Shown: positions 26,840 to 60,647, counted from the whole stretch's first letter. The stretch is DNA of 60,647 bases, filler included, from 4 parts of 4 records of this genome joined end to end with filler, not necessarily neighbours in it; one strand, 5' to 3'. Numbers and translations are program-made. Notes: a model not told the origin generated them from the sequence alone.

Positions 26840-26939
26840 NNNNNNNNNNNNNNNNNNNNNNNNNNNNNNNNNNNNNNNNNNNNTTAATTAATTAANNNNN
26901 NNNNNNNNNNNNNNNNNNNNNNNNNNNNNNNNNNNNNNN
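26840..26939. other. artificial contig linker
   Basis: N-run + TTAATTAATTAA (stops in all frames) + N-run, 100 nt. Confidence 0.97.
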
Positions 26940-31391: not shown

Positions 31392-33098
31392 ATGGTCAAA
31401 TCAACCGATACAATGAAATACTACTACTTAGTCTTCTTATGCCTATTTCAATATTGGGGATTCTCCCAACAAAATAAACCGATAGCCCCTGTACCTTTAA
31501 CGAACCACTCCTACGATATTCTCTTTGACAGTATCAAAAATTCGGATCCTTTAAGTGCACAACAACGAGGTTATTTAAAAGTCTTTTTGGAAAAAGCTAA
31601 GCGTGAAAACAATACTGTAGAGATTGTTAATGCATATAAAAACTACCTCCATCACGGAACAAAGAATTTACAACTAGTCTATGCTGATAGTATGATTTTA
31701 ACCGCTACCCTTGCCAAGGACACAACACTTATAGGAAGTAGTTACCTCACCAAAGGAATTGTCTATTATGGATTAAAACAACATGACAAGGCATTGGATT
31801 ATTATTTAAAGGCTAATGAGCTATTAATCAATTCCTCAGACACCTACCTGACGTACAAAACAAAATACCATCTCGGTATGGCTAAATATTTTCTAGGCTA
31901 TTACCATGAAGCTGTTTCTTTATATCAAGAATGTCTGGCCTTTTTCAAAGACTCCTATCCTAGGCCGTATCTGAATACATTACATTCATTGGGGCTTTGT
32001 TACAATCAAATGAAAAATTACGCATCAGCTTCTGACATAAACACCCTCGGACTAAAGGAAGCAAAACGTATGGACATGCACGTAATGGATTCTTATTTTA
32101 AGCTCTCCGAAGGTATCAATCTATTTGATAAAGAAACCTATATACCATCTCTCAAGCTTCTTAAAGCCTCCATTAACGATTCCATTATTCTTAAAGACAG
32201 TACCAATTTGAGTATTGCCTATTTTTTCATTGCCAAGAATTATCTAGAGCAAAAACAATCAGACAATGCAATAGCATACCTTCTAAAGGTAGACCGTATC
32301 TATGAAGATACTGGATACCTCCGCCCTGACCTTAGGGAAACCTTCGAATTATTAATTAATTATTACGACTCTAAAAACCAACCCAAAGAAAAGCTTTATT
32401 ATATTGAAAGACTGTTGGAATTTGATGACTTGATCAATACATACTATAGATACCTCTCCTATAAAATTCACAAGGAAAGTATCTACACTACTCAAAAATT
32501 ACGGCAAGAAAAACAAAAAGCAGAGCGTCAACTTTTTATAGAAAAACACGGTAAGAGGATCTTGTATTTTGCACTCATTTTAGTAAGTATTCTCCTCATT
32601 TTTATATTTAACCGTCACCTCTATCTAAAAAAATTATACAAGAAGCGTTTTGAGCAATTAATGGCAACCAACCATAAACTTCCATTAAAAAAAACTTCAA
32701 AAGAACACCATAAAAAAACAGATTATCAATTAAACCTTGAAGTAGAAACTGATCTCTTACAGAAATTACACAACTTTGAAGATAAGAAGCGATACCTGGC
32801 TGACGATATTACGCTAGCCAAAGTAGCTGCTGATTTTGATACCAATACCAGATACCTATCCCAACTAATTTTAAAACATCGAGAAATGCGGTTCAAGGAA
32901 TATGTCAACAGCCTTAAAATAGCCCATCTGATTGATCTATTAAAATCAAATACCCTCATCCGAAACTATAAATATGATGCCTTAGCCAAAGAAGTAGGAT
33001 TCACAGGAAAACAAGGCTTTGTAGCAGCGTTTAAAGCAAACACAGGCATTACACCAGCATTCTTTATTGAAAAATTAAGTACAAAAAGTACCCATTAA
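31392..33098 (+). CDS. membrane-anchored TPR-sensor AraC regulator
   Basis: Signal sequence, TPR repeats, TM segment ILYFALILVSILLIFIF, C-terminal AraC HTH. Confidence 0.85.
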   Translation: MVKSTDTMKYYYLVFLCLFQYWGFSQQNKPIAPVPLTNHSYDILFDSIKNSDPLSAQQRGYLKVFLEKAKRENNTVEIVNAYKNYLHHGTKNLQLVYADSMILTATLAKDTTLIGSSYLTKGIVYYGLKQHDKALDYYLKANELLINSSDTYLTYKTKYHLGMAKYFLGYYHEAVSLYQECLAFFKDSYPRPYLNTLHSLGLCYNQMKNYASASDINTLGLKEAKRMDMHVMDSYFKLSEGINLFDKETYIPSLKLLKASINDSIILKDSTNLSIAYFFIAKNYLEQKQSDNAIAYLLKVDRIYEDTGYLRPDLRETFELLINYYDSKNQPKEKLYYIERLLEFDDLINTYYRYLSYKIHKESIYTTQKLRQEKQKAERQLFIEKHGKRILYFALILVSILLIFIFNRHLYLKKLYKKRFEQLMATNHKLPLKKTSKEHHKKTDYQLNLEVETDLLQKLHNFEDKKRYLADDITLAKVAADFDTNTRYLSQLILKHREMRFKEYVNSLKIAHLIDLLKSNTLIRNYKYDALAKEVGFTGKQGFVAAFKANTGITPAFFIEKLSTKSTH

Positions 33099-33185
33099 AA
33101 ATTAAAGCCTGCTAAATGTACTTTATATAAATGTAGAATATTTAGTTCTTAAAATACACGTAAAAAAACAATACTACGAAAAAAA

Positions 33186-33221
33186 TGGTCAGATAAGGAA
33201 ACTAAATTTCCCTTCTGACCA
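33186..33221. terminator. probable bidirectional terminator between convergent genes
   Basis: TGGTCAGA...TCTGACCA stem with inner GGAAA/TTTCC pairing. Confidence 0.55.
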
Positions 33222-33250
33222 AATTTACTCTTTCATCAAGTAAATACCTA

Positions 33251-34255
33251 TTAATGGGATGATTTTGTGTCCAGCTGATAATTTGCTAGAATATCCTCAG
33301 CCCCTGGGAAAGGAATATCATTTAATTCACACCAAGTTTCAACTTCTCCAGTTAATACTACTAGTTGTCTCTGAATATCTCTATTCGAAGGTCTTACTCC
33401 GTGGTGATGTCCTTTAAAATATACTTCCCAATCCGTTTTTACGGTTCCTTTGTATTCCTTACCCTCATAAACTTCATAAGTTAATCTAAATGAATAAGTA
33501 TAACCTTTTTGCAAAGAAGACATAAGAGAAAGTCCTGAAGAAACTGATTCAGTCGAATCAATTCTATTTATAGTAGCAGGATTGATAAGTTCTGAAGCCA
33601 CAGATGGTATAAGCTCTTGATTTTTTGAATTTGCATCTTTTAAAAGTTCAAAAATCTCTTTCGATCTTTTGATAAAATCTAAAAGTTCTTTATCATTAAA
33701 ATCCATTTTCATCAATTGTTCCTTATACGCTTGTAAAAAAGTATTGAATGTTATTTTATCAACATCAACGCTAGATTTTACGGCAGTAAAAGTCATTGCA
33801 TTTTCAATTGCAGTTGTAATTCCAGTCGCCTCTATTCTTCGCTGCCAGGCCATAATATCAAACCTTGTTATTGAAAGTCCATCTACTATTATATAGTAAG
33901 AATGCATTTCTGATTGTGTACCTTCTCCAGCACCTAAAATAGCTTCTAAGCCTCCAGTTACTAGTTCTCCAATGCCGTCAACTATTCCTTCTGCATCGCC
34001 ACCTATAAATTTTTTCACCGCCCCTGTAACAGTTTCAACTAGGGTTCCAGCATTTTCAGATACATAAGCTCTTGTCTCTCCATGAAAAGCTAGTGTGTTA
34101 GTTATTGGAATTGTAGGATTTTCAGGTGTCCCAGTAGTTCTAAGCAATTGTTTTAAAGATTCTTTCTGCAAAGCATTTTTTTGCTCTGCTAATTCAAAAA
34201 GTAAATTAACTGCTAGCGTCAATTCTTTTTTCTTGTCTGTTGAGGTTTTGAAATC
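33251..34255 (-). pseudogene. hypothetical protein, probably 5'-truncated at the junction with the IS110 remnant
   Basis: Over 320 codons open; no ATG near the 5' end; reading frame runs into antisense transposase sequence at about 34250. Confidence 0.55.
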
Positions 34256-34742
34256 TTTAAAAAGACAGTTAAAAAATATAGATAAAGAGCTTGTGAAGCT
34301 GGAAGCTACACTGTCTGAAAAAGTAAAATTAGAGTATCAAAAAGAAGCCACTTTATTAAAATCAATTCCAGGTATAGGAGAGAAAACTGCATTAATGTTG
34401 TTGGTGTTTACAAATGGTTTTAAGCAATTTAAATCGGCCAGTGATCTTTGTAGTTATGCAGGTATTACACCTACCACGAGAGAGTCTGGAACGAGTATAA
34501 AAGGTAGACCTAGAATCAGTAAAATGGGTAACCCTAAACTTAGAAACTTACTATTCATGTGTAGTTTTAATGCATGTAAATATAATCGCGCATGTAAGGC
34601 GCTTTACGAGCTTATTGTTGCAAAAGGAAAGAGTAAAAAGTTAGCATTAATTGCCATGTGTAATAAACTACTTAAACAAGCTTTTGCTATTGTGAAAAAT
34701 GGAATCCCTTATGATGAAAATTTTGTTTCAAGATTGAGGTAA
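34245..34742 (+). pseudogene. IS110-family recombinase/transposase, C-terminal fragment
   Basis: LLKSIPGIG, SYAGITP...SGTS, GNPKLRNLLF and KLALIAMCNKLLK motifs; N-terminal RuvC-like DEDD domain absent. Confidence 0.88.
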
Positions 34743-34835
34743 AAACCAAAGGATTTTACCTCAGTTCTTTGTTGTGCATAGTGCTTTTCAAATTCAGCTT
34801 GGTTTTCCGATGTTTGTTATTTAGTTCTAATGTGT

Positions 34836-34923
34836 GCGTTGGCGAGACATACTCTTTTGCAATTTTTGGTGTAGTGTTGGATGATGCGAATTGCAAATGT
34901 GTATGGCTTTTTAGTGTTGGCTT
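34836..34923. repeat. structured GTTGG-bounded hairpin repeat, copy 1
   Basis: GCGTTGGC...CATACTCTTTTGCAATT-loop(GTTGG)-AATTGCAAATGTGTATG...GTTGGCT. Confidence 0.6.
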
Positions 34924-34941
34924 GAAACAAACAAATTTCCA

Positions 34942-36255
34942 TTAATCCATTACAAACTTAAATCCTGCTGTAACAATATTAGAACTAAAAGATGTATCTC
35001 TATCGTACTGATAAAATTTTAAGTCAATACTTTTTAGACCTAGTTTCCAAATATGTGCCTTTGCGAAAATATCTGTGTACGACACTCCAAAACCAATTTG
35101 GTTAGCAGAATATTCGGAAAGGTCATAATCAGAAGTATAAAAGTCATCGGTAGATAAAGTACTTTCATAAGGTCTAAAATAATCGGCTGCTGTTTGATTA
35201 TAAAATCTGTAAGATGGATACAAAGTAAACTTATCAGTAATTTTAATTGGCACTTCAATACTTGCAGTATGTGAAGATATTCCCCAATCATCAAAATAAT
35301 AGCGATAGAATGTTCTTACTGTAAATGTTTCATTTAAATACCAATTTAAACGACCACCAACAGCTACTTTAAATCTTGAATCTGGTAAACGCTCAACTGC
35401 ATCTGCAAGTTGAAAATTATCTATGAATGAATCTGCAACATCGCTAAAATAAACTCTTTGAAATGGTGTAGATAATAATCCATCTTGTTTTACAAAATCT
35501 AGTGCTAAAGAACCTTGCACATTTTTATGAAGAATTTGAGAGAAGCCAAATCCTAAAGAATAAGAATTACGACCTTCATCTTTAAATTCACTAAATCTAG
35601 GATTGTAATTTGTGTTTCCTGTAATTGTATTTTGAGTAAACAAATTATCATTTAAACCATTGCCATTTTCTCCGAATGGTCTTAATTCGGTTGGGTAAAT
35701 GGCGTTCCAAGTATCAATATAAACATTTGCATTTACACTTAATTCTGTATTCTTTTCATTAAATAATTTTGTGTAACTACCACCAACACCAGCTGAAAAA
35801 TAATCGTATTCTGATGAAATAGATATTTTTGCAGACCAAATATCATTTCTATCGTCAGAACTATGACTATAACTTCCTGTTAAATTTGCCCAAAGGTCGC
35901 TACTTGATGCGCCAGAAGATGCTTGAAATGGGTCTGCTGGCCCATCATCAAAAGGTCCAACGTTACTTGAAGATGCTGATGTGTAAGCAGAAACTCCAGC
36001 GTCAATGGTTAGAACATCATCATCATTTAAAGGTATTGAAACTACAAAGGTTCCTGTAACATCTGTTAATTCTTCAGTGCCTATTCCGCCACTTACCGCA
36101 GCATTATCTCCATCTTGCGAGTAGTAACTTGTTAGAAAATCTACTTCTGTAGTTTCTAATACACGTTTTTTATAAACTTTTGTCGAGTCTTGTTCTGTTT
36201 GCGAATAAGATTTAACAAAAGCAAATACGCATAATATCAAAATAAATTTTTTCAA
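34942..36255 (-). CDS. DUF3570 outer-membrane beta-barrel-like protein
   Basis: TTG start gives a signal peptide; SYYSQDG, YTSASS, SSGASS, ERLPDSR, YRYYFDDWGI and SDYDLS motifs; aromatic C-terminus. Confidence 0.8.
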   Translation of the reverse strand: MKKFILILCVFAFVKSYSQTEQDSTKVYKKRVLETTEVDFLTSYYSQDGDNAAVSGGIGTEELTDVTGTFVVSIPLNDDDVLTIDAGVSAYTSASSSNVGPFDDGPADPFQASSGASSSDLWANLTGSYSHSSDDRNDIWSAKISISSEYDYFSAGVGGSYTKLFNEKNTELSVNANVYIDTWNAIYPTELRPFGENGNGLNDNLFTQNTITGNTNYNPRFSEFKDEGRNSYSLGFGFSQILHKNVQGSLALDFVKQDGLLSTPFQRVYFSDVADSFIDNFQLADAVERLPDSRFKVAVGGRLNWYLNETFTVRTFYRYYFDDWGISSHTASIEVPIKITDKFTLYPSYRFYNQTAADYFRPYESTLSTDDFYTSDYDLSEYSANQIGFGVSYTDIFAKAHIWKLGLKSIDLKFYQYDRDTSFSSNIVTAGFKFVMD

Positions 36256-36268
36256 CTTTCTTGTTTTA

Positions 36269-36481
36269 TTAGTTACAGCCACAGCCTCCTCCAGTTTTCC
36301 CTCCATTTGCTCCTACAGCAGCTTCACGATATGAATGCATCGTGGAAACATTTCGGTCAGCTTTCTTGTCTGCCAATGCCATATCTGGGTCATTTATATT
36401 TACTTTTTCGTATTCTTTAACTACAACGCAACTACTAAGACAAGTAGTAATTAATGTAGCACATATAAATTTTTTAATCAT
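36269..36481 (-). CDS. DUF4266 small lipoprotein
   Basis: LSSC lipobox; YREAAVGANGGKTGGGCGCN C-terminus. Confidence 0.85.
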   Translation of the reverse strand: MIKKFICATLITTCLSSCVVVKEYEKVNINDPDMALADKKADRNVSTMHSYREAAVGANGGKTGGGCGCN

Positions 36482-37458
36482 AACTTATCTATTTCTATAT
36501 TCTTTGATTTCGTGATATTTCCTTTATCATCAATGATAATACATTCTATTTTTGGTAATTGATTAATGCGGTCTAAACCAGCTTCTTTTCCCATAACAAA
36601 TACTGAAGTTGCAAGTGCATCTGCCAATTCTGCTTTTGGTGCAAATACGGTTACACTTATAATTCCGGTAGAAGGATATCCAGTTCTTGGGTCAATAATA
36701 TGTGTGTATCGTTTGCCATTAAAATTTACATATTTTTCATAATTTCCAGAAGTAACTACAGCTCCATTTGTAATTGGTAATAATGCAAAGACTTTATTTT
36801 TATCCATTGGATTTGTGATGGCTACTTTCCATTCATTACCATTAGGTTGTTTTCCCCAAGTATTCATATCTCCAGAAGCATTAATAATTCCAGAAGGTAC
36901 ACCTTTTGAAATAAGTAGATTTTTTGCCATATCAGCTGCATATCCTTTTCCAATAGCACCAAAACCTATTTTCATTCCTTCTAATTTAAGAAAGATTGTA
37001 CTATTCATTTTATCTAAAACTATGTTTTGATAGCCAACTTTTTCTACTGAAGCTGTTATTTCCTCTTTTGAAGGCATTTTGGCCATACTGCCATCAAACT
37101 TCCAAATTCTGTCCATTGAAGCATAGCTAATGTCAAAAGCACCATCAGTCAATTTTGAAATGCCTATTGCTCTTTCAATTAAATCAAACAATTCTTTGTC
37201 AACTTTCACAGGTTTAATTCCTGCATTGCGATTAATTTCGGATGTTTGAGAAGTATTATCCCAAGATGAAATTAAATTTTCAATTCTTGATATTTCTGCA
37301 ACAGCAGTATCGATATATATGTTTGCTTTTATAGAATCGTTTGCAACAACAGTAATGTCAAATCGACTACCCATTAATTTGAGTGTTCTCTTATATGGTT
37401 GTTGTGCTGTACAACCCATTATTGAGAATAAAAATAATAAAGTGATTATATGTTTCAA
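36478..37458 (-). CDS. apbE: FAD:protein FMN transferase
   Basis: LMGS, TDGAFDIS, GAIGKGYAAD, TSGNYE, HIIDPRTGYP and ADALAT motifs. Confidence 0.95.
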   Translation of the reverse strand: MKHIITLLFLFSIMGCTAQQPYKRTLKLMGSRFDITVVANDSIKANIYIDTAVAEISRIENLISSWDNTSQTSEINRNAGIKPVKVDKELFDLIERAIGISKLTDGAFDISYASMDRIWKFDGSMAKMPSKEEITASVEKVGYQNIVLDKMNSTIFLKLEGMKIGFGAIGKGYAADMAKNLLISKGVPSGIINASGDMNTWGKQPNGNEWKVAITNPMDKNKVFALLPITNGAVVTSGNYEKYVNFNGKRYTHIIDPRTGYPSTGIISVTVFAPKAELADALATSVFVMGKEAGLDRINQLPKIECIIIDDKGNITKSKNIEIDKL

Positions 37459-37459
37459 A

Positions 37460-37900
37460 TTACTTTGTAAAAGCGTTTAATTCTTTAATATAATTTTCTG
37501 GTGTAGTCTTTTTATAACTACTTTCTCCTAACACTTGGCCATTAGAGTCAAGTACTACAACAAAAGGAAAAAAACCTTGTTTATTGTATTTTTCTGCAAG
37601 TAATGCATTCGCTTTTGTTTGTTTTTCTGACAATATGTTTTTCTTTCTTCTAGGAAAATCTGCCTTTAGCATAACATAATTATCTTTTGCATACTTTTTA
37701 AAAGTTTCTGTGCTCCAAATTTCTCTGTCAAGTTTAATACAAGGTGCACACCAATCTGAACCTTGAAATACTAATATTATGGGTTTACTTTCTTTTGATG
37801 CAATTTCTTTTGCAACGTTAATATCTGTTTGCCATTCTTGAGCAATTATTGTATTTATACTTACAATCATTACAATTAATGCCGCAATAACTTTTTTCAT
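37460..37900 (-). CDS. secreted thioredoxin-family protein
   Basis: Signal peptide; GSDWCAPC active site. Confidence 0.9.
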   Translation of the reverse strand: MKKVIAALIVMIVSINTIIAQEWQTDINVAKEIASKESKPIILVFQGSDWCAPCIKLDREIWSTETFKKYAKDNYVMLKADFPRRKKNILSEKQTKANALLAEKYNKQGFFPFVVVLDSNGQVLGESSYKKTTPENYIKELNAFTK

Positions 37901-37930
37901 TTTATTATTATTTATTATTGATAAATGAGA

Positions 37931-37988
37931 TTGTCAACAACTAGACAATACCTATTTAACGAATATATTGTTTTTTTGTTATGAACAA
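37931..37988. repeat. imperfect palindrome resembling an attC-like recombination site
   Basis: TTGTCAACAA..ACAATA..TATT / AATA-TATTGT..TTGTTATGAACAA nested pairing, 30 nt upstream of the thioredoxin ATG. Confidence 0.35.
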
Positions 37989-38027
37989 CTCATTTTTTTT
38001 TTCAGTTTAATATTAGCATCAATTTGA

Positions 38028-38113
38028 GCGTTGGCAAATAAACTGCTCTTTTGTTTTTTCAGAGTTGGCTTATGTGTTGAAAAAAAAACAAATGTGCTGT
38101 TTGTGGGTTGGCT
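38028..38113. repeat. structured GTTGG-bounded hairpin repeat, copy 2
   Basis: GCGTTGGC...AAACTGCTCTTTTGTTTTTT-loop(GTTGG)-AAAAAACAAATGTGCTGTTT...GTTGGCT. Confidence 0.6.
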
Positions 38114-38119
38114 TTTTTT

Positions 38120-38219
38120 NNNNNNNNNNNNNNNNNNNNNNNNNNNNNNNNNNNNNNNNNNNNTTAATTAATTAANNNNNNNNNNNNNNNNNNNNNNNNN
38201 NNNNNNNNNNNNNNNNNNN
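38120..38219. other. artificial contig linker
   Basis: N-run + TTAATTAATTAA + N-run. Confidence 0.97.
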
Positions 38220-38223
38220 TGTT

Positions 38224-39258
38224 ATGAATAAAATGCGTGTTTTTACAATCTCAAATTGTATTGTTCTTTGTTGTGCCATACTACTGAGTGGGTGTGGCCT
38301 TTTTGGTGGAGAACAAGGAGATAAAGGAGAGCTTATAGGAGCTCCGGATAGACAAGGCTGGGAGATGACCAGACCTTTTGGTATGATGTCAATTCCATCT
38401 GGTACATTCCATATGGGACAAGCCGACGAAGATGTCGCAGCGACTCAAATAAATTTTAACAAACAAGTTACCATTGGTGCATTCTTTATGGATGATACAG
38501 AAATCACCAATAATGAGTACCGACAGTTTACCCAGAATATTCAGGAAAGTTCTGAAATTGATTTACCAACCGGTTATTCAATAGCAGACTTGCTTCCAGA
38601 TACTACAGTCTGGACGAGAGACTATACGCACCACATGGGAGATCCATTGGTCGTGTACTATTGGTCTCACCCTGCATTTGATGATTATCCTGTAGTTGGG
38701 GTCGACTGGAATGCAGCCAAATATTTTTGTGCCTGGAGAACTAGCTATTTGAATGATTATAGATCCAGTGTAGGACTTCCAGTTATGCCAAACTTCAGAC
38801 TTCCATCTGAAGCTGAGTGGGAATACGCTTCCAGAGGAGGTCGTGATATGGCTAAATATCCTTGGGGTAACCCTTACATAAGAAACGCTAAAGGCTGTTT
38901 GCTAGCCAATTTTAAGCCGGGTAGAGGTAACTATTTTGATGATGGCTATGCCTACACATCACCAATAGGAACATATTTCGCCAATGAATATGGTCTTTAT
39001 GACATGGCAGGAAATGTTGCCGAGTGGTGCGAAGACGCTTACAATCCATCAGCAATGCCACTAACCTGGGACTTGAATCCTACGTATTTTGATGATAATG
39101 TTCCTTTCAAAGTGATCAGAGGTGGCTCATGGAAGGATATAGCATATTTTCTGGAAACAGGTACAAGGTCATATGAGCATCAGGATACCACTCGTGCTTC
39201 AATTGGCTTTAGATGTGCAATGACTTATCTTGGCAGATCATCAGGATACGAATTTTAA
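38224..39258 (+). CDS. gldK: gliding motility / T9SS lipoprotein GldK (PorK)
   Basis: LSGC lipobox; FGE-sulfatase-like fold motifs RLPSEAEWEYA and GLYDMAGNVAEW; first gene of gldKLMN. Confidence 0.92.
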   Translation: MNKMRVFTISNCIVLCCAILLSGCGLFGGEQGDKGELIGAPDRQGWEMTRPFGMMSIPSGTFHMGQADEDVAATQINFNKQVTIGAFFMDDTEITNNEYRQFTQNIQESSEIDLPTGYSIADLLPDTTVWTRDYTHHMGDPLVVYYWSHPAFDDYPVVGVDWNAAKYFCAWRTSYLNDYRSSVGLPVMPNFRLPSEAEWEYASRGGRDMAKYPWGNPYIRNAKGCLLANFKPGRGNYFDDGYAYTSPIGTYFANEYGLYDMAGNVAEWCEDAYNPSAMPLTWDLNPTYFDDNVPFKVIRGGSWKDIAYFLETGTRSYEHQDTTRASIGFRCAMTYLGRSSGYEF

Positions 39259-39298
39259 AAAAATCAAAGAATAAATTACTAACCTAAATAACATTACA

Positions 39299-40120
39299 AT
39301 GAGTAAAAAAGGCGGATTTCAGGAACTACTCTACTCCACTATAATGCCGAAAGTGTATGGAATTGGAGCAGCCGTAGTAATTGTAGGTGCACTGTTTAAA
39401 ATATTACACATGGAAGGAGCTGCAATTATGCTTACCCTTGGTCTATTGACTGAGGCTGTGATCTTCTTCCTTAGTGCTTTCGAACCGAAACACGCAGAAC
39501 CGGATTGGGCCAAAGTTTATCCGGAATTAGCAGACGATTATGATGGACCAAGTGCTAAGCCAAGAGCTGCAGTTCCCGCTTCTAATCAAGGCGCTTCTGC
39601 TCAGATGGACAAAATGCTCGCTGAAGCAAAAGTGGGTCCTGAGTTGATCAAAAGCTTAGGTGACGGTATGAGAAATATGGCTGAATCGGCCAAAAAGATG
39701 TCTAACCTAAGTGATGCTGCGGTTGCTACAAACGACTATGCAAGCAATGTGAAAAAAGCTTCAGGCTCATTACAGGAAATGAACAAGTCTTATGCATCAG
39801 CAATGCAAGCTATGTCTGGTATGGCTGAAGCAACTAAGGATACAAAAGAATATCACTCTCAAGTTCAAAATGTAACTAAGAGTTTAGGTGCGTTGAACGC
39901 TGTTTATGAAATGGAGCTTAAAGACGCTCAAAGTCATACTAAGGCTTTGAATAAGTTCTATTCCAATATCAGTGGTGCTTTGGAAAGTATGGCTGAAGCT
40001 GGTAAAGAGACTTCTGCTTTTCAGGCTGAGCTTAATAAGCTTACTTCTAACATTTCTGCGCTGAATAAAGTATATGGCAATATGCTTACAGCAATGAGAG
40101 GTAGTAGTAATCAACAATAA
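39299..40120 (+). CDS. gldL: T9SS/gliding motor subunit GldL (PorL)
   Basis: YGIGAAVVIVGALFKILH...TEAVIFFLSAFEP...WAKVYPEL; YGNMLTAM C-terminus. Confidence 0.95.
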   Translation: MSKKGGFQELLYSTIMPKVYGIGAAVVIVGALFKILHMEGAAIMLTLGLLTEAVIFFLSAFEPKHAEPDWAKVYPELADDYDGPSAKPRAAVPASNQGASAQMDKMLAEAKVGPELIKSLGDGMRNMAESAKKMSNLSDAAVATNDYASNVKKASGSLQEMNKSYASAMQAMSGMAEATKDTKEYHSQVQNVTKSLGALNAVYEMELKDAQSHTKALNKFYSNISGALESMAEAGKETSAFQAELNKLTSNISALNKVYGNMLTAMRGSSNQQ

Positions 40121-50747: not shown

Positions 50748-50847
50748 NNNNNNNNNNNNNNNNNNNNNNNNNNNNNNNNNNNNNNNNNNNNTTAATTAAT
50801 TAANNNNNNNNNNNNNNNNNNNNNNNNNNNNNNNNNNNNNNNNNNNN
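50748..50847. other. artificial contig linker
   Basis: N-run + TTAATTAATTAA + N-run. Confidence 0.97.
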
Positions 50848-50961
50848 AGCAGCAGCAACAACAACAACAAAAACAACCACAAAAACAAGGGACTTTGTCT
50901 GGGTTTGTTGCTGTGTGCGTGCGTGTGTGTGCGTGGGTGTCGTGGGTGTCGTGGGTGTTGT
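50848..50961. repeat. microsatellite-rich sequence (AGC/AAC, GT and GTGGGTGTC repeats)
   Basis: (AGC)3(AAC)4, GTGTGCGTGCGTGTGTGT and GTGGGTGTC x2-3. Confidence 0.75.
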
Positions 50962-50990
50962 AGCAGAAACTTTTTGTTTCTTCAAGAAGA

Positions 50991-52883
50991 ATGAGACGCA
51001 GCCCTGGCGTTGCGAAGGCGGCGGACTCAGCCCGAAGACTCCAAGCAACGGGCGACGTGGCGAACAGTCTGCTTCACTTGCTATCGCAGCTCAAGGCCAT
51101 TCGATACCCGGGGCATTTTCCGGCGACAGTTAGTGAGCTGTGAGTCTACGTGCGCTGTGTGAAAACTACTGCAGAATTGCCAGAATCTGAATTGTAGTTT
51201 GAATTGAGAGTGTCTCGGAGTATGCCTCGCGTGTGTATGTGCGCCTCGTGTAGTGTGTGTGCTTCGTGTGTTTAAGTGTGCATTGTGTATGCGTGTGTGT
51301 GTGCGTGTTTGCATTGCGATTCGTTTGTCACTCGCCTTGGCGCGGGTTGATGTTGATTGTTCGCGCAGGAAAGCAAAGGGCAAGTGTGCCGTCTTGCTGC
51401 CGATACTTGGGCACCTTTTCCTGGGCGGCTTTTCCAAGCTTGTGGCGGAGAAAGTCGCCCACAGCAACCCGCGCATGTTCGGACAATCTGATGCCGATTT
51501 TGTGCGCAGCGTGTTCCTGTTTGTCAAACAAGACTTCGGTTTTCGCCCTCACTTGAGTCCACAGCAGTTTCTGAACACTGAACGTTACACGGAGCAGTCG
51601 CTGCTGTTTGTGAGAGCGTGTGCGGACCTCTGCCGCGCTTTTCACAAGGAAGAAGCGCGAAACCGTGGGCTTCCCACCGGAAAATCAACAAGGACTGCGA
51701 CTTCAAAGCATGGGCTTCACGAGCAGGCTTCCCAAACCAACGCGACGACGCAAGGCCCACACGACGGCAGCACGACGCAGTCAAATGCCAAAAGCGTGCC
51801 CCGCGAACGCCCATGTCCCATGCCTCATGCACAACCGTCGACTTCGTTGGCCACCAAAACGTCGAATCCTGCACCGACGCGAGTAGAGACCTCAAAATCA
51901 TCGTTTGCTCAAACGTCTTCTTCAGACGAATCCAGGAACCATTCCGGCGAAAGGTTCACCGCACTTCGCCCGCAAGAAGGTTACCAAGACGCTCATTCGC
52001 CTGCGATGCAGAGAGAGGAAAGCTGTGACTCGGAGAAGCAACCGCATCAGCCACTACACATGCACCGAAAGCCGGAATTGCATGCTCCTCGAACTATTCT
52101 CCAGCCCGAGCTTCCATCACGTGATTTCGACGCGGTGAGCGCGCCAAACAACTCCGCCAATGCGCAATCAGGGCTTTCGACGAAGCTGCTCGACCTTGTT
52201 AGAAAAATTCATATTAAAATGGAGTCGTCGCTGGAAGCAATTAATGCGTACGTTCCATTTGAACTGAATTGTCTCAGCCGTGTTCACAGTAATTCCTTGT
52301 TTCAACGTCACTTGTCTGCGGTATTGGCACCGGGCTATTTGCAGGCGCCTGTCATTGCTAGAAGCACGGCTCGATCGCAATGACACCGCGATGTCCGCTC
52401 AGGTATGATCATAAGCCGACCCATTGTGAATGTCCCGGACTTCAATGCACTGAGGATGCTTTGACATGTGCTGCTTTTGATCAGGCGAATGAAATGAAGC
52501 GACTGTTCGAAAACCTTCCGAAAAACGACAAACGACGCGTTGACCCATCACAAGGTCATGGAAGCGATTCATTTGCGACGGCCAGCGTCGAGGCCAAGCG
52601 CCCCGAAACCGGACACCCACTAGTTGCTGACAGCAGTTCTAAGGCGGACGCGATGCTCCAATACGAAGGCACACATGGTAGCTCGTCAAAAGATATTGAA
52701 CGTGAATTGGTTGACGAAGGCCCTGGCCCCGTTCACCAGGATGCGCAGTTGCTTGTGGCCATGATTGCCGAAAGAATCAAAGAGTCACATCGATTGCTGG
52801 AGCGGACGCGGCCGGTTGCAGAGATGCACCCAGATGGCTCGCACAGCAGCAATCGCGTTGCGGACGTGCTGAACGACCCGTGA
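50991..52883 (+). CDS. CEP44: centrosomal protein CEP44 homolog, 4 exons (50991-51139, 51369-52247, 52345-52402, 52485-52883; 494 aa)
   Basis: Spliced N-terminus ATGDVANSLLHLLSQLKAIRYP...LLPILGH...SDADFVRSVFLFVKQDFGFRPHLSPQQFL matches the CEP44 domain; three GT-AG introns keep frame; coiled coil INARLSLLEARL; AATAAA at 52934. Confidence 0.8.
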
Positions 52884-53096
52884 CCATTTCCTCACAGCTA
52901 TCAGGACCTTGGGTGGGTATCGATGATAGGTTTAATAAATCTATTTTGAATTCCTCGAGAGTGTTTTTATCATTTTGCTTTTTTGATTAGAATTAAAAAA
53001 AATCACATCGCACCAGAAATGGCTTCTTGGACGTGAAACAATTGCAACCAATAGGTCAACCCGCAGCTACCGAGGAGTCTGAGGGGGTCTTCGGCG

Positions 53097-56000
53097 TTAC
53101 TCTGGCCACCGCAAACCAAGATACGACTGTTCCGGCGAGCGTGCAGTTCCATGATTATGCAAGTGTGTACTGTCCACCATCGTGCTGCACATAGAACAAC
53201 GAAAGCGCAAAGAAGAGCAATGCATTGCAAATTCAAAGCACGCACAGAAACCAGTCGAAACATCATGAAAACGGTTTCGTTCAATCATACCTCTGTCGCT
53301 GATCGTCGAGAAGGTGATCTCTGTGGTACGGCTGCGGTTCAAACTCTTCACGAGGACCGGACGCACCCAACTGAAGTGGAGGGCGAGCATTGTCCGAGCC
53401 GCTAAAAATAAGACTATCAGGAGTCCCGGTCCCAGCCCGGAAACCGATTTCGGGCCGTCCGTACTCACTCTTCATCGTCGATTCTCGATCACTCACCTCA
53501 CTCCACAATTTCCGCGCACTGGTGACAAGATCGTCCGTCCCAGCTGCGGATTGGGAATCTTTCCTCACGTTACGTCGTTGGGAGTTCGCCGGCAAATGAC
53601 CGATGAATGCCACACCGGGAGTGTTCCGGTCGGCCAACCGCTCTGTTGCCACCGGGCGCATATCATTCAAAGTCGACAGACTTGGATGTACAAAAGACAT
53701 TTGGTCAACGCCGATGCGCGGGCCTGCAATGCGAGGCAGACAGCAGAGAAAACAGGCTCAAAATATCGTGCATATTGCGGCGAACGACCAAGACGCAGAA
53801 GCAAGCATACTATTGCCCGGAAATGCAAAGTACCTGGGGCATCGGTTGGCAGGCCTGAAACAGCGATGCCATAGGACAGTCTGTTGGTTTTGTTTCCAAG
53901 CTGCGGGGGGTTGCGAAGACGAGGTTGCGGAGGAGCCGTCGAGTTGCTGGGGTGACCACTGTTTCGGATTCCTGATCAAACGCAGCACGGCCTCGATGTT
54001 AACAACACGGTGGCGTGTTATACATGGGCGCAAGGAAAAGAATACGCGCTCAAAAAATGGGGGGAAATGAAACACGTACCTTTCTGGAACGGCGATGCAA
54101 TGGCCAGCCGCTTGGTACCTGCCAAAAAAGACAGAAAATCTTCATAATCGATGAGCGGCTCCAAGTCCGCAGCGTCAAGAAGTGTTCCGTCCTCGCCGCG
54201 GGTCACGCGTTTTCGCGGCGGGGGCTGGAAGTTGCCGCGCAAACGTGAGTATCTACATGCAGCAGATACATACTGGTGTCAGCCTTCCTTTTCGTGATTT
54301 GCATACCAACAAAGGAAAGACAAAAAAAGTGCACACACCCAGCCACAGTGCGGCACATGATGGTGGCTTCCTTTTTGGAGATTTTTTCTCCGCATTCTCT
54401 CAAACACACGTAGAATTCTGTGACGGTCAGAAGCGTGTCGTCGCTTTTGATGGCTGCACAACACATTTTCACATGAGCCAAATTCAGGGAGGCCAATCAA
54501 CCAATGCAGGTGAACTTCAACCCAACACAGCGCCACGGAACAATGCGTTTATCGATTTCAGCTCACGCACGTCTGCCTTCCGCATCGAGAGCATTTGCTT
54601 TGAAGTCAGCCAATGCAGATCGCAGCTTTTGAATGCGGCGCCGAAGGCCAGGGTCGATATTTTCTTCATCTAAGGTCCCAGAGTTTTGGCTGTTCCTCTC
54701 TGGCTCATCATCGCTGGAACCGTGGGATTGTTCGCCGGCGCTGGGTTCGAAAGATTGTTGGTGGATCGTAGATGGAGAAACTGACCGTTGCAGGCGAGTG
54801 TTATCTCGGGGTGTATGCGTTGGCCCATATCTGGTCCGTTCACTCGCGTACTTGCTGATGATGCCGTCGTGCATAAGTTGTTGATGAATATTTTGCACGC
54901 TCTGGTCAGCTGAGACCCACTCTCGAGCAGCACTCTGTCTCGCAAGCCTCTCATCTGGCTCGCTGCGATCGGTTTTCTCGTCCATGGAAGCCGGACCAAA
55001 TGACCCATCTTCGTCAAAAGAAGCAGCTTCAGCGGCAGCAAACCGAGCTGCCTCTGCCTCGTCCTCCAGTCTCTGTGCCTCAGCCTCCTCGTACACGCCC
55101 ATGCACGCAAGAATGACCTGGACAAGATCTTGAAACACAGACTCTGGCATCGCTCGGTGTTCGTCGGAGCTTGGCCCTGCAAACGAAAGCCCTTCGGTGA
55201 GACAGTGCACAGACGGGTACCCCATTAAGGCATAGCTGCGAATTCAACCAAATAGTACCATGTGCGTCCCAGGTTTGTATAAGTTGCTCCGGTGTGACGC
55301 AAGCCTCCAAAATTTCCGCAGCCACGCTTTCAGGTATGAAAGTGCCCTTGAGCAGAACAAAAGCCAATACTCACATGGGTGACTATAAATTGTCGCAATG
55401 GAGCACTACACTTTCGAAAACAAATACGAAAAGGTTGACGCTGCAGATGACGATGCCAACCTCTTCGTCCAGAGTATCACAGAGAACTTCCAGGAATTCG
55501 CCAGCTGACTTTTGCCGCTCGTGAGGGCCTCGAGTGAACTCGTGGACGCCAATAAGAATGCCACCTCCCACCTAGCACAAGTAAAAATCATTGGCTTCGA
55601 TCTGCTTGCGTGGACGATCAGAAAACTACTTTGATACGTACGCGCATGGGCCGTGTTGGCACTAACCTCTGGCAGCGACTGCGCTTTTATCTGAGGGTAG
55701 CAGTAGTTCAATAACTTCCACCAAGGCTCAAAGTTGCGCACATTTTTTCCTTGGTCGTGAAGAGCCTTCAAAACGGTGAATACAGCTTCCTGCAGTTCGA
55801 ACGCAGACAAAAGTTGAAATACGGAACATAAATTGTAGTGGACGCAGATTTGCTAAGATAAAAGCTGGTCACACCTGGAAGTCAGGCGCCGGCATGCCAG
55901 TTGGGGCTGTCTGTTCGCAATACCGTTGCAACTCGGCGGCAGCCCGAAGCGCCGAATCTGGTTGTGCCCGTTCACTTGGTGCTGCTGTATCACTCGGTTC

Positions 56001-59000
56001 TGCAGCGACACTGGACTCGTGCAATTTCGTGTCGTCAAGGGTGGGAGCTTCGTCGAACGTTGACTCTGACTCTCGTTCACCGGCAATCTCGACAGACCTG
56101 AACCAACAGCGATGACATCAGTGCGGAAACGCAGGTTCCAAAATAATCAATGTTGAACTGCAAGCGCGCTAACCCAACCCACCCAAACCTACCCTTCTGT
56201 GGGTTCTAAAAAACTCTGCAAGGGCGAGTCGACGCCTTTGAACGGCGATGGCGATGGTCGACTACGAATCGGAGACAGTGACTGGTCTGGTTCGTCTGCC
56301 ATGTTGCTCTCATTAATATGGCCTGCATCATGATCCTCTTCGCTGCTATCGTCTGGTGCATCGGCCTCAATAATGCTGTTCCATGCTGATACAGCAGAGT
56401 CTGTCGAGGCAGGCTTTGCAACCAACTTTTGCGAATCAGCGTCGAAGGTCGATCCGAGAAGAGACGCCAATAGCTGCCGCGCGTGGCCTTTTTTGAGCCC
56501 CAGATCGTTTAAAGTGACGTTTGCAAACTCGCTATCTGTATTCACACATAAAAAACACAAGCGTCCCAGCTGAAACCTTTGAGTCGTGGAGACACAGCGT
56601 TTGTAGGCATTTCGACGTTACCCTACAACCTACCAGCACCGATGTGCTTTTGCAATGACGGGTACTCGTGAGCTATGGAACAAAGGAACCCGACATCGTC
56701 ATAGCCCTGCTCCACGAAACGCGGAATATATCTGCATGCAAACACCAACACTAGTCAATGGTGTATACCAAGTGCAAGTTCACACTGTTGCGGGAAGTCG
56801 GAAAAATGGAAGGGAGCGGGGAAATGCAGCAACTAACTGATCAAGGCCACAGCGAAGCAAGAACTCCTTCAAGGCCCCCGAAGACATGTCTTGCTGGGAC
56901 TCTGCTTCAGAATCACTTGCTTGTTCAGTCGGTGCAGGTGCCGGTGCTTGAGCGTCAGTCTCAGCAATGGTTTTCGCTTGTTCTCGCTGTGCAGCAAGTT
57001 CCGCCGCCTGGGCTGCCTCAGCATCTGCTAATTTCTTTGCGTGTTGTAACTTTTCCTGCTCGTCTCGCAGGCGCGCCAACGCCTCGTCAGCCTCTCTTCT
57101 GCGCTCAGCTAGTAGCGCTGCCTCTGCGGCAGCGCGACGCATTTCTTCTCTTTCAGCTTCGATGCGGGCCTGTTCCTCCAGTTTCTTTGCAGCAGCCTAC
57201 ATTTCGAGACACAGTGCAGTAAGCCACACCGCCGTTGCAATGTATAGCAGCGCCTACAAATCGTGCACTTTGACCTCCCACGGACCACAGCCGCCGACTC
57301 TGCCATTTGCGCGGACAACCGCTTGTAATACTCCAAGCCGTCAATGTGGTCGACAAAATACGCGACCAGTGATTTGATGACCGCTCGAGGTCGCAGAAAG
57401 ATGCCGCGATCTCCAGCGCATTGGAAGTAGCGCGTGTTTCCAACTTTTCCGTCATTTTTCCCTTCAACATACCCAAACAAAACAGGTCAAGCGGCTGCGC
57501 GGTCCACACAACAACAGCTGCAAAAAGAGTATGCGACGCACCCCACGGTCGAAGGAGCTCAACACCGAACCATTGACCACTAGCAAAGTCTACTTCGCCG
57601 GAATAGCGGATAATACCTTCGCAAAAATCCTCGTCACCAGAAACACCAGCCCGATTTCCACGCGCATTTTCCAGCTACGCACGCCACAAAATGTGAAATT
57701 ACACGAGCTACCAGTGCGCGCGGCAAACAGCCACAATCAACAACTTCAGCAAGCGATCACGCACCAAGGCTTCTTCTGCGTCGTTGAGGACCCCGGCGCC
57801 GGCATCGTGGTGCTGGCAGTAGGACGCGAGCACCCGGACCCGCTGTCCGAGGTGAAACTTGATATCATTCAGGAATGAGTCAGTCTCAATGGAAACTTTT
57901 CGATTCGTTGGCGACAGTCCAACATCGTCCATAACAACCTGCCATGGAACATTCAGTGTTCGTTAAGCGTACGAGACCATGGACAAGAGCTTTCAGAGCA
58001 CAGGTAAATCTCAGTCGCACCTCGCCCAGGGTCATTCGACGACTCATGCGCGCTGGTTTGGAAGGGGTGCCGACTGGCGCATCGATAGTTGCCAACATTT
58101 CATCCTCGACTTTCCCGTGGTCAGAGAGCTGCTCAGGCCGTAGGTCCTGATCACTACTTCCCTCGTCACTACTCACATCTTGCATGTACGGCTCCTCGGC
58201 ATCTGACAAACTGTCATCACTTTCATCAGCAGCATTGTTGGCCATTGCGTCAAGCATGTCTTCTGTTCCGTCATCGGAAATGCTGGCATCATCAGAGTCC
58301 GATTTTGCATCTGCTCCTACAAACTGTTCTGGTTCAATTTCCTGTTCCTGAACCTGTTCCTGTTCCTTTTCCTTTTCCTTTTCTTGTTCCTGTTCCGGTT
58401 GCAGTTCCAGTTCTGCTTCCGGCTCTGTTTGTTCCTGGATGGCCTTCGACTTCCCTCGCCGGGGGCGATGTTGGCGAGTTGGCCCGGGTTGACTTTTCGC
58501 GGGAGGGGCTCGTCCAGAGCCTATGCGTGAAAGCCAACGATCTTCCAACACGCCTCGCTTCTTCTGCTGTCGAGCATTCAAAGTCTTCATGGTGCGATAT
58601 CGCCAAGCTGCCTGGACCCACAACACAATCGCCAGCCGTTGGTCCAGCTCGTCGGTACTTGTAGCAAGCGCGAAGCGGGCTCGGACTCTCAACTATTGTC
58701 GTTCATGTGTGCAGCAGAGAGCGCCATCGCATTGAAAGAAATAAAATCTTGAGAATGTACCCAACAAAACGGTTGATGTAAAGCCAGCAGCCATGACACA
58801 AAATTGAACGGGACTTGCCTTCGTAGCTAGCATTCGAGCTCGTTTGAGCCTTGCATCGGTGGCAGCGACCATGGCTTTGTTTCCAACACGAAGGCTCTCC
58901 TCTTTCACAGACTGTGTGCGACGCTTTTTTAGCGTAACGATGGACATTCGCTTATTTTGACGTGGCGCAACGTGTGTGGGACGTGAGCTGCCGACGCCAA

Positions 59001-60647
59001 ACTCGTCTTTGCGAGGAGCGCCACGAGCGGCCAATGGTGACAACTCGTCGGCCATTTCATCTTCCGACTCGTTGTCCACAGTGTCCTCGCTGTCAGAAAT
59101 GTGATTCCGTGTCACGAGGGGAGACAATGTCAAAGGTGGGCCTCCGGCGGATTGCGCGGCGGCCAGGTGTGCTGTCACGTCCGGGGAACTTTCGCCTCCG
59201 CTGGAGTTTTCGCTTTCGTAATCGTCCGCATCATTGTTCTCAGGAAAGGACACGCTCAGTAATTCGGTTGTCCGATTCGAATCGCCAAATTCACCTTCAA
59301 CGCGAGGCTGGCGTGCACTACGGCCATAGACTTTGCTGCTCAGTGCTGCAGCAAGGTTGTTCGGCGCATCGGCTGCCCTCCCTTTCAAAAACGGTGTGTC
59401 ACCAGCAAGGTCGATGAGACCATTGGCATCTGGCGTGGAGGGCGCTCCGTCGTCGACAGGCAGCGGCGAGAGGCGTGGACTGTTGAGGGAAGTGTCACTG
59501 TTGGGTTCCTCACTCGACGACTCCGTAACTTGCGTTGGCACAGAGTCCATGCCTCTCATTGGGGAGTTATTACCCCCGAGAGCACGCGACATAATCAAAT
59601 TTCGAACGCGCGCTCCGTCGCTGCTTCGCGGCTGCTTCGCTTGCTCTGGACGCATGGACGGCGAGTGTTGCCCATCGCTGTCATCCTCGTGGCCGTCGCT
59701 CTCGTCATCGTCATCGTCTCCATCCGTGAGTTCCATTGCATCAAACACTGAGTCAACCAGGCTGCTTGTTTTACCATGATGAGATGTTCGCCTTGCACCA
59801 TCGGTGCCACCTGCCTCATTGTCCACCAATCGCGCTTGCTCCTGACCTTTCCGATTTTCTTGTTCCACGCGAGCAGCCAGTTGTGCTCGGAGATCCACTG
59901 AACTGCTGTGTCGGCTGCCTACCGGCGTTGTCGGGAACGGTGGCGTATCGAGGCCGGACGACGACACTCTAGCATTCGCTAAGGCCCCGTCTGGCGAAAC
60001 TAGCGGTGGTGCACCAGGCAGTCCTTTGACGGCGCTGGAGGGGCTGAGCCCGAGTGGAGGAGCCCCAACCATGTTGGGCACAGCCATCCCCGTCAACTCG
60101 GATTGGGTCCGTCGGGGCGTGCGAGGAATCGTCCCAATGGTACCTGACCGCAATGTGCACAATGATGAGTAAACATGAGGAAACCGGGAGCAATGCAGCT
60201 GGATTGAATTGCCAACGAACCTGGGCCTGTAGAAAGCGGCGGAATGCTGCTCAATCCTCTCATGCCCGTTGCGTCCGTGCCAGTTGCGCGCGGGGTTGCC
60301 GGAATAGCACCTTGAGTGCCTGAAAAAGATAGCGATGGCATCAACATCTCTATCTTGCTAGGTTTAGGTACACAACGCATCAGTGCGGAACAATACACTA
60401 ACCAGGTCCTGTGGTGAGTGGAACTGCGCCACTTGCAACCAGCCCACCGGCTTGATCATCGGCATCAAGATCCGAATCGTCGGACTCGCCATCGCTGTTT
60501 TCGTCAATTTGATCGAGGTCAGTCACGCTATCCTGAGTCTGTACAGCGGGGAAGGATTCACGGGGTGGTTTTTGCTTCAACGACGGCGAGCCAGGCATGC
60601 GATTTTCAGACTTTTGGCCCTTGGGCGTGGCAGGCATCGCTGCTGGA
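53097..60647 (-). CDS. large multi-exon eukaryotic protein with IQ motif, CAP-Gly, coiled coil, SAM and EF-hand-like regions (5' end outside window; could be more than one gene)
   Basis: Spliced CAP-Gly [41 protein letters not shown]; IQ-like VQAAWRYR; SAM LKEFLLRCGLDQYIPRFVEQGYDD...LGLKKGHARQLL; several frame-consistent introns. Confidence 0.65.

Follow-up and report, generated by a model that had tools for sequence, protein, structure and literature searches.

What kind of element is delimited when one structured repeat stands at both ends of a four-gene operon, and what might that repeat do there? The question is raised by a stretch of 60,647 nucleotides (hereafter, the window; 60.6 kb), in which four contigs are joined by three linkers of the form N44-TTAATTAATTAA-N44 (N runs at 26840-26939, 38120-38219, and 50748-50847); anything spanning one of these runs is an artefact. 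The operon, annotated from the outset as encoding thioredoxin-like (Trx), ApbE, DUF4266, and DUF3570 proteins on the minus strand, lies with both of its hairpins inside contig 2 (26940-38119). An initial annotation had read the locus as an integron-like system, in which a cargo operon is bracketed by a covarying repeat and by attC-like sites. Comparisons with relatives, including G001, the nearest genome compared with the window, show the locus to be one mobile cassette of a Bacteroidota integron-like system, read from the minus strand, and show the hairpins to be cassette-internal brackets placed just inside attC-like sites. What stood of the integron-like proposal was the GTT-joined cassettes, the arrays, and a recombinase, all found in relatives; the attC site and the repeating unit had been assigned wrongly, and the recombinase is not an IntI. 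As to function, the reading we favor, at a probability of about 0.4, is that of a putative single-strand DNA accessory site for the recombination or recognition of large cassettes.

Two related hairpins in direct orientation, copies A and B (Table 1), were recovered at slightly wider bounds than the 34836-34923 and 38028-38113 first reported, and their motif layout was borne out: GCGTTGGC on the 5' side, GTTGG in the loop, and GTTGGC on the 3' side, with CTCTTTTG/CAAATGTG and two T-T mismatches in copy A and copy B alike. The boxes said to precede them, TTGTTGTG (34769-34776) and TTGTTATG (~37976-37983), are both present. A covariance model (R1) built from copy A and three G001 copies, with copy B excluded, recovered copy B at 25.5 bits (E = 1.4e-4 within the window), and a broader model from 48 sites (R2) found no third copy in the window besides copies A and B (83.9 and 50.0 bits). 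That the stems stay paired while their sequence changes was likewise confirmed: among 47 distinct family members, 25 of 34 pairs were altered on both sides, paired cells amounted to 88.8% versus 36.0 to 44.3% when the partner was slid by 1 to 3 columns, and the observed covariation score was reached by none of 500 shuffles. The main stem was 96 to 97% paired. The two T-T mismatches were kept in 46 and 43 of the 47 sequences while adjacent pairs covaried, CTCTTT was present in 44 of them, and GTTGG (with at most one mismatch) occurred on the 5' side in 37, in the loop in 40, and on the 3' side in 41; an exact GTTGG was found in 20 of the 47 loops versus 16% of composition-matched shuffles. Because the mismatches and boxes are near-invariant, we infer a specific binding partner for them. 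The three inner helices held 105 G-T cells versus 5 A-C cells, which indicates that pairing is maintained on the antisense strand relative to the cargo; copy A folds on the plus strand, antisense to its cargo, and begins 16 nt past the DUF3570 stop codon. A search of window positions 32000-40000 against Rfam gave no match at E up to 1, and the hairpin fits no curated family.

The sites at which cassettes are joined were found in relatives. In G001, co-oriented units spaced by repeats come after a tyrosine recombinase gene; arrays are co-oriented and begin 0.2 to 1 kb from the recombinase gene (loci L052, L101, and L102). The spacing repeats are attC-like sites of ~131 nt (11 sites, seven genomes), the bottom strand of which is predicted to fold into an 18-bp stem and a 5-bp R box bearing AAC/GTT, with an unpaired, asymmetric spacer and two G-T pairs that never vary; compensatory changes were seen in 10 of the 23 predicted pairs (n = 11 sites). 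They fold better on the bottom strand, which is the folding strand of the hairpins as well. As modeled, the sites of relatives thus combine the attributes by which attC is recognized: paired R''/R' boxes, AAC/GTT, a spacer, a stem, a variable middle, and a bottom-strand bias. The window retains only an R'' remnant of such a site. One and the same cassette was found between differing neighbors, with breaks exactly at the recombination-site GTT: for a cassette with ArsR-MerT cargo in G001, G089, G008, and G038, the right flanks match up to the R' GTT and then diverge, and on the left side the same GTT start has three different partners in three genomes. Cassettes delimited by GTT and shifting in context in this way are, as judged from the aligned flanks, integron cassette behavior. 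The hairpins do not mark the cassette junctions: the joints lie at the separate ~131-nt attC-like sites, and the boxes flanking the hairpins are direct repeats rather than inverted as in attC. That the hairpin is itself an attC was ruled out by the direct boxes, an outer helix paired to 78%, joints located elsewhere, and the presence of hairpins at both ends of the cargo.

Some further features of these arrays were noted. Three tracts of the G001:C1 array (L052 5909-6500, 9853-10800, and 11549-12150) hold tandem units of ~454 nt, each closing with an attC-like site and without an open reading frame (ORF) of more than 45 codons; these look like ORF-less cassettes repeated in one array. Group II introns (Rfam RF01999 and RF00029, with RVT_1 and GIIM ORFs) adjoin R''-type boxes at L052 17817-19636 and L104 7737-8531, a placement that recalls group IIC-attC introns. 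Rfam returned for the G001 array only the group II intron and a weak tRNA-like match (L052 16694-16792; 45.4 bits, 99 nt), which directly follows an attC-like R' box and in which ARAGORN found no tRNA.

Read in the direction of the cargo genes (the reverse complement of the strand used in the initial annotation), the hairpins fall into two classes. Class 1, the type of copy A, lies 0 to 20 nt past the last cargo stop codon and is followed by a spacer and then by the R'' box of an attC-like site; class 2, the type of copy B, comes after the R' box of an attC-like site and ahead of the cargo's own upstream region. The order class 2, cargo, class 1, with a single hairpin orientation, was found in 15 of 15 loci, which had been fetched because two matches shared a contig and in which two G001 class-2 copies were spotted by eye; the cargo spans 1 to 11 kb, and in all 15 loci every cargo gene runs antisense to the strand that folds. 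The unit is site, hairpin, cargo, hairpin, site, and not gene(s)-hairpin-site as first proposed; co-oriented gene(s)-plus-hairpin units do exist in tandem in relatives, as a check on tandem arrays found. Spacing was often tight: judged by eye, 14 to 17 nt separate the GTT from the class-2 hairpin at 9 of 16 sites (at 2 others the R' box is unrecognizable or an insertion sequence [IS] intervenes), and 23 to 29 nt separate class 1 from R'' at 10 of the 14 class-1 sites (out of 33) behind which a strict pattern recognized an attC-like site. In the window, the minus-strand order is copy B, upstream region, Trx, ApbE, DUF4266, DUF3570, copy A, spacer, and an R'' box with an IS; the window proper therefore offers a single cassette, interrupted by the IS on one side and by the contig end on the other.

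Cassettes with unrelated cargo, from three genomes, share the R' flank with the class-2 hairpin on one side and the class-1 hairpin with spacer and attC-like site on the other, and their likeness ends at the cargo-side box of each hairpin. By this pattern of likeness, the hairpins are part of the cassette frame and not of the cargo. A 4.9-kb contig from a different genus (G050) matches the window cassette (34770-38118) at 91% identity across 3365 nt that take in both hairpins. Near-identical forms were present in public runs labeled as several organisms and as seawater and wastewater metagenomes; some of these runs may be the origin of the window DNA, so they do not count as independent. A chromosomal paralogue of the operon in G001, 80% identical, has no hairpins and bears a small ordinary terminator-like hairpin at the same place. 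Cargo elsewhere comprises type I, II, and IIG restriction-modification systems, several of which include a small HTH regulator; a 5-hmdU-kinase/TIR/Nmad set, RhuM, and Dcm-MvaI; CzcCBA-type and P-type-ATPase metal efflux with an AraC-HMA regulator, and a Na/H exchanger; and ArsR-MerT-HMA with a small Cys-rich protein. Single-gene and toxin-antitoxin cassettes of the arrays have no hairpins.

The hairpin family is widespread and sparse. R1 matched 27 of 101 relatives of G001 (21 of 61 from the same family and 3 of 10 from the same genus, with further matches in other families of the order), with 1 to 7 copies per genome, many of them at contig ends, and R2 matched 34 of 151 genomes sampled evenly over the phylum (E up to 1e-5). 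Five genomes scanned whole gave 22 matches, of which 14 formed 7 class 2-cargo-class 1 pairs; two of the 8 unpaired matches were inspected, one having an IS21-type helper gene in the class-2 spot and the other being a class 2 for which no class 1 was found. Weak BLAST matches of copy B in G001 proved to be chance, L054 being a coding region. One class-2 hairpin (L058 5269-5360; G001:C1:767268-767359), accompanied by an R'-type flank and by two genes of 263 aa each, immediately follows a core gene, and no class-1 partner was found for it; this is possibly a single cassette that inserted away from any array.

A linked tyrosine recombinase, for which the initial annotation had asked, was found beside several arrays in relatives but failed the integron-integrase test. 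Hairpins have a gene for a Xer/IntI-like recombinase no more than ~5 kb away in G001, G089, G008, G059, G015, G164, and G114; in the window, an IntI integrase is not present. Against TIGR02249, the G001 array recombinase scored 185.5 bits in two stretches (cut-off, 265), and it has 25 residues where VchIntIA (IntI4) has 68, which denotes the lack of the IntI-specific insertion. Its best solved relative is a XerA-like protein, and its N-terminus carries ~90 extra residues that fall into no Pfam family. Homologues (E up to 1e-60) were found in 40 of the 101 relatives, namely, in 17 of 27 hairpin-bearing and 23 of 74 hairpin-free genomes, such that co-occurrence of recombinase and hairpin is an enrichment and not a dependency. 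G001 itself holds two array recombinases that are 99% identical (G001:C1:3880344-3881447 and G001:C1:2764048-2765151); the second copy has a class-1 hairpin 9 kb away and an IS110-family gene at a distance of 15 kb, a setting suggestive of another array in that genome. In G164, from another class of the phylum, a true integron integrase (G164:C130:7370-8308; 394 bits, above the cut-off) and, on a separate contig, a hairpin-bearing array with a Xer/IntI-like gene were both found, so a true IntI and a Xer/IntI-like recombinase can coexist.

What, then, might the hairpins do? According to the accessory-site reading, they would act as DNA and not as a gene, folding on the bottom strand as the attC-like sites are predicted to do. 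In an excised, circular cassette the order would be class-1 hairpin, attC, class-2 hairpin, with attC flanked on both sides. What each hairpin would offer to a protein partner is its two T-T mismatches together with as many as three GTTGG(C) boxes, the likeliest candidate being the array's Xer/IntI-like recombinase with its extra N-terminal domain, or else a host factor; as accessory sites, the hairpins might aid recognition, folding, or recombination of large multi-gene cassettes. We favor this role because the hairpins are bound to the frame, pair on the attC strand, keep near-invariant features, and would flank attC in the circle.

Several observations weigh against it. At an E value of 1e-60, 10 of the 27 hairpin-bearing genomes have no homologue of the recombinase, and 23 of the 74 hairpin-free genomes have one. 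Hairpins are absent from most cassettes of the same arrays (L052), from which it follows that recombination as such needs none. Spacing is loose at some sites, with 45 to 95 nt between GTT and class 2 at 5 of 16 and 51 to 118 nt between class 1 and R'' at 4 of 14. The covariation was measured on an alignment fitted to the model structure and among related genomes that are not independent; a single column supplies 33 of the 48 main-stem G-T cells; and the outer helix formed by two GCGTTGG boxes, predicted by RNAalifold, is weak (78% paired, mainly as G-T) and was not relied on. Hairpin-bearing cargo carries its own regulators, a circumstance that an expression role fits at least equally well.

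Such a role is the subject of the main rival, a possible though somewhat doubtful one, whereby the hairpins would be transcription insulators: the upstream one would block read-through from the array, and the downstream one would end the transcript or block antisense entry, and self-regulated restriction-modification or metal operons would thereby be tolerated in a co-transcribed array. It would account for hairpins being on multi-gene cargo with regulators of its own (HTH_3 C-protein-like, ArsR, and AraC) and not on single-gene and toxin-antitoxin cassettes of the same array, for class 2 standing upstream of the cargo's own upstream region, and for the small ordinary terminator-like hairpin that the chromosomal paralogue has in the same place. 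On the sense strand, runs of 4 to 8 T follow the class-2 stem, but only ~3 T follow that of class 1, and counts of T runs around the stem are uninformative inasmuch as A and T runs pair together in the model. Pairing, moreover, is selected on the antisense strand (105 G-T versus 5 A-C), and RNA of the cargo sense strand folds weakly (-11.9 and -11.5 kcal/mol; z, -1.4 and -0.9). Loops of 20 to 30 nt and A-T-rich stems are unlike the small loop and short G+C-rich stem of an intrinsic terminator, a terminator scan of 34200-38119 gave 0 sites, and termination needs neither near-invariant T-T mismatches nor three boxes. As to transcripts, one contig of RNA run X16 stops 10 nt past the DUF3570 stop codon and the X14 contig continues through hairpin A into the attC-like site; the X14 and X16 contigs span the operon and both hairpins, yet such contigs break at repeats and show neither strand, nor ends, nor level, and so speak neither for termination nor against it.

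The observation that unrelated-cargo cassettes cease to be alike exactly at the cargo-side box of both hairpins invites a second, unlikely reading, that of cargo exchange. The hairpin pair would be a second, cargo-side module of the non-IntI system, giving a frame of site, class 2, class 1, and next site, with the hairpins or their GCCAAC boxes as the ends at which operons are loaded or swapped between frames, be it by site-specific, single-strand (IS200/IS605-like), or homologous exchange between hairpins. Were this true, the frame would offer a natural route by which multi-gene cassettes could arise. The boxes are similar to R'' as found in the local attC-like sites, the hairpins flank the cargo on the same strand as IS200/IS605 ends do, and repeats of 14 and 11 nt flank 2 of 15 units; the other 13 lack a flank repeat. 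The sharp inner boundary is predicted by a cargo-loading frame and also by common descent of the sites, and a conserved site with variable genes is normal for the attC of chromosomal integrons. No dedicated enzyme is linked to the hairpins, no adjacent, cargo-free hairpin pair appears in the hairpin match lists, and an empty site had 0 matches in the genome contigs with a single 25-nt pattern, too narrow to establish absence.

The folding strand being antisense to the cargo, a cis-antisense RNA transcribed across the hairpin from the strand opposite the cargo was also considered, and is most improbable: the RNA folds of that strand reach -21.6 and -22.6 kcal/mol, but with poor z scores (-0.09 and -1.74) and no Rfam family, no promoter-like sequence is conserved upstream of the hairpins across copies, and the same element occurs on either side of the cargo, 5' as well as 3'. 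Hardly any weight can be given to an IS110 bridge or seek RNA (IS110/IS1111 elements carry structured guide RNAs in their non-coding region according to the accessible part of PMC11187229, and copy A starts 94 nt past a transposase stop codon), which is refuted by the end of the IS at 34768, by hairpin A cassettes lacking the IS in G050 and in the X14 contig, and by more than 45 hairpin sites with no adjoining IS110 gene, or to a generic REP/BIME or MITE repeat or to chance, given that copies are few (1 to 9 per genome), always at cassette ends, and not dispersed as a check for REP-like behavior would have had it, that a flank repeat is found at only 2 of 15 units, and that covariation exceeds all controls and is not decay.

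The IS in question had been overlooked: an IS110-family transposase C-terminal half occupies 34224-34742 at the left edge of the locus. It matched PF02371 (82.2 bits, E = 3.5e-23) and NF033542 (117 bits, model positions 184-342 only), the latter score falling short of the cut-off (140) for want of the N-terminal half; identity to a full-length 330-aa relative is 93%, and window positions 34242-34774 are 95% identical to a full-length IS copy in G004. On these matches, the fragment 34224-34768 is assigned to the IS110 family (DEDD transposase, Transposase_20 C-terminal domain). It is truncated on the left at ~34242, where homology with G001:C2 stops as well. A minus-strand ORF of 323 aa (33251-34242; no Pfam family) has lost its first codons relative to a 343-aa gene of G001:C2 and at 34242 joins the IS in its middle; this joint is either a deletion joint or an assembly chimera, and it recurs on a contig of 11,302 nt in runs X1 and X3, a possible source of the window DNA.

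On the right, the IS ends at 34768 and homology with the G050 cassette starts at 34770, and the X14 contig has attC L''-type sequence left of 34769 in place of the IS; these alignments place the IS insertion immediately behind the R'' box that remains of an attC-like site. Seven of seven right ends (the window, G004, three in G037, and two in G028) close in the same few bases and are followed by an R''-type flank. Because all seven abut such a flank, the IS lineage is predicted to target attC and to be a Bacteroidota counterpart of the IS1111-attC group, members of which (ISPst6 and ISKpn4) insert at one end of attC as stated in the accessible part of PMC11187229. The window element shares with that group its position at one end of an attC-like site; it differs in belonging to another phylum and in being a truncated remnant. 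It also differs from the IS1111 type in that only 26 nt follow the stop codon, so the long non-coding region must sit upstream, an arrangement of the IS110 type (PMC11187229, same part).

Between hairpin B and the first ATG, at the spot where other cassettes have their own upstream regions, an imperfect palindrome (37925-37995) folds as DNA with z scores of -3.2 and -3.6. The attC-like call that had been made here (37931-37988) fails, the local attC motifs being absent and the structure being lost in the G050 copy, that is, in the 91%-identical cassette of another genus (z, -1.1 and -0.7). The region is, from its sequence and place, probably a promoter or operator region. A check by eye of conserved segments ending in TTTG found no upstream element at the right spacing, and a sigma-70 scan, which does not cover Bacteroidota promoters, gave 18 sites versus 19.5 in shuffles.

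Table 1. Features of the cassette and its surroundings, in window coordinates
Feature	Position	Strand	Basis
IS110-family IS, 3' part	34224..34768	+	Transposase C-terminal half (stop at 34742) and 26-nt right end
attC-like remnant, R'' box (GCACAAC + AA)	34769..34777	-	Start of G050 homology; X14 contig; position as in intact R''
Spacer between class-1 hairpin and R''	34778..34831	-	Conserved with the hairpin across other-cargo cassettes
Class-1 bracket hairpin, copy A	34832..34926	+	R1 89.9 bits, R2 83.9 bits; folds; covariation
Cargo operon	34942..37900	-	Pfam; 91% identical to G050:C21 including hairpins
DUF3570 gene	34942-36306	-	Pfam
DUF4266 gene	36269-36481	-	Pfam
ApbE gene	36478-37458	-	Pfam
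Thioredoxin-like gene	37460-37900	-	Pfam
Operon upstream region	37901..38023	-	Contains imperfect palindrome 37925-37995
Class-2 bracket hairpin, copy B	38024..38117	+	R1 25.5 bits; R2 50.0 bits, E 1.5e-10; place and sequence type as in class-2 copies of relatives
Artificial contig linker	38120..38219	.	N44, TTAATTAATTAA, N44; non-biological

Copy B stops 2 nt short of the end of contig 2 (38119), and the sequence past it is unseen; copy B being at a contig end, gldK at 38224 is no true neighbor of it, nor are gldL and gldM. These three genes of the type IX secretion/gliding apparatus (gldK with an FGE-sulfatase domain) occupy the start of contig 3 (38224-41774) and are ordinary. Contig 4 (50848-60647) has a G+C content of 52 to 54%, compared to 33 to 38% in the other three contigs, and probably comes from another organism through bin contamination.

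How do these arrays relate to known systems? Sedentary chromosomal integrons of the Vibrio VCR type have uniform attC sites of ~120 to 130 nt. Like integrons, the arrays described here have co-oriented cassettes beside a tyrosine recombinase and GTT-joined cassettes in differing contexts, and their sites share with attC the AAC/GTT core boxes, the unpaired spacer, the long second stem, the variable middle, and bottom-strand folding. Unlike integrons, they have a recombinase that lacks the IntI-specific insertion and falls under the integron-integrase cut-off, and many of their cassettes are whole operons with regulators. The hairpins themselves recall other elements. The left- and right-end hairpins of IS200/IS605 are ~20 to 25 nt long and lie beside tnpA, with flanks that vary between insertions; here, too, two imperfect hairpins on one strand flank cargo, with mismatched T as recognition features in a putative single-strand action, but they are ~90 nt long, have no tnpA-type gene linked to them, and keep their attC-like flanks. 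Arm sites of the lambda and CTnDOT types are duplex DNA without a hairpin; the resemblance is in short repeated boxes around a core site and a recombinase with an extra N-terminal domain, binding here being putative. With intrinsic-terminator insulators the family has in common that a hairpin flanked by A and T runs stands at each end of a transcription unit; it differs from intrinsic terminators in its large loops, conserved motifs, and antisense-strand pairing.

In the published record, defense genes have been described as integron cargo (bioRxiv 10.1101/2024.07.02.601686, in its accessible part), the same kind of cargo as here. For Bacteroidetes, the accessible portion of the IntegronFinder 2.0 paper reports only In0 and one complete integron, and a passage of a review names Bacteroidota among the integron-bearing phyla with no detail. 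The literature searched held no description of a second paired hairpin inside integron cassette ends, nor of such hairpins or arrays in Flavobacteriales or Bacteroidota; subscription papers and supplements lay outside the search, and an earlier description is possible. What emerges is an integron-like cassette system in which the recombinase is not an IntI and a bracket element, paired and structured, is added to the usual parts.

Bacteroidota are considered to be poor in integrons, and here arrays occur in about a quarter of the phylum genomes sampled. These arrays combine attC-like sites, a recombinase that would be rejected by standard integron tests, an attC-targeting IS, and group II introns, and their cargo includes restriction-modification, other defense, and metal-resistance operons. 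The paired hairpins are conserved, structured, and unnamed, and their near-invariant mismatches would be the signature of a specific partner. If they are recombination accessories or loading sites, they would bear on the handling of multi-gene cassettes and on the origin of cassettes; if they are insulators, they would be a natural way to carry self-regulated, potentially toxic operons in a co-transcribed array. Under either reading, the covariance model provides a practical marker for such cassettes.

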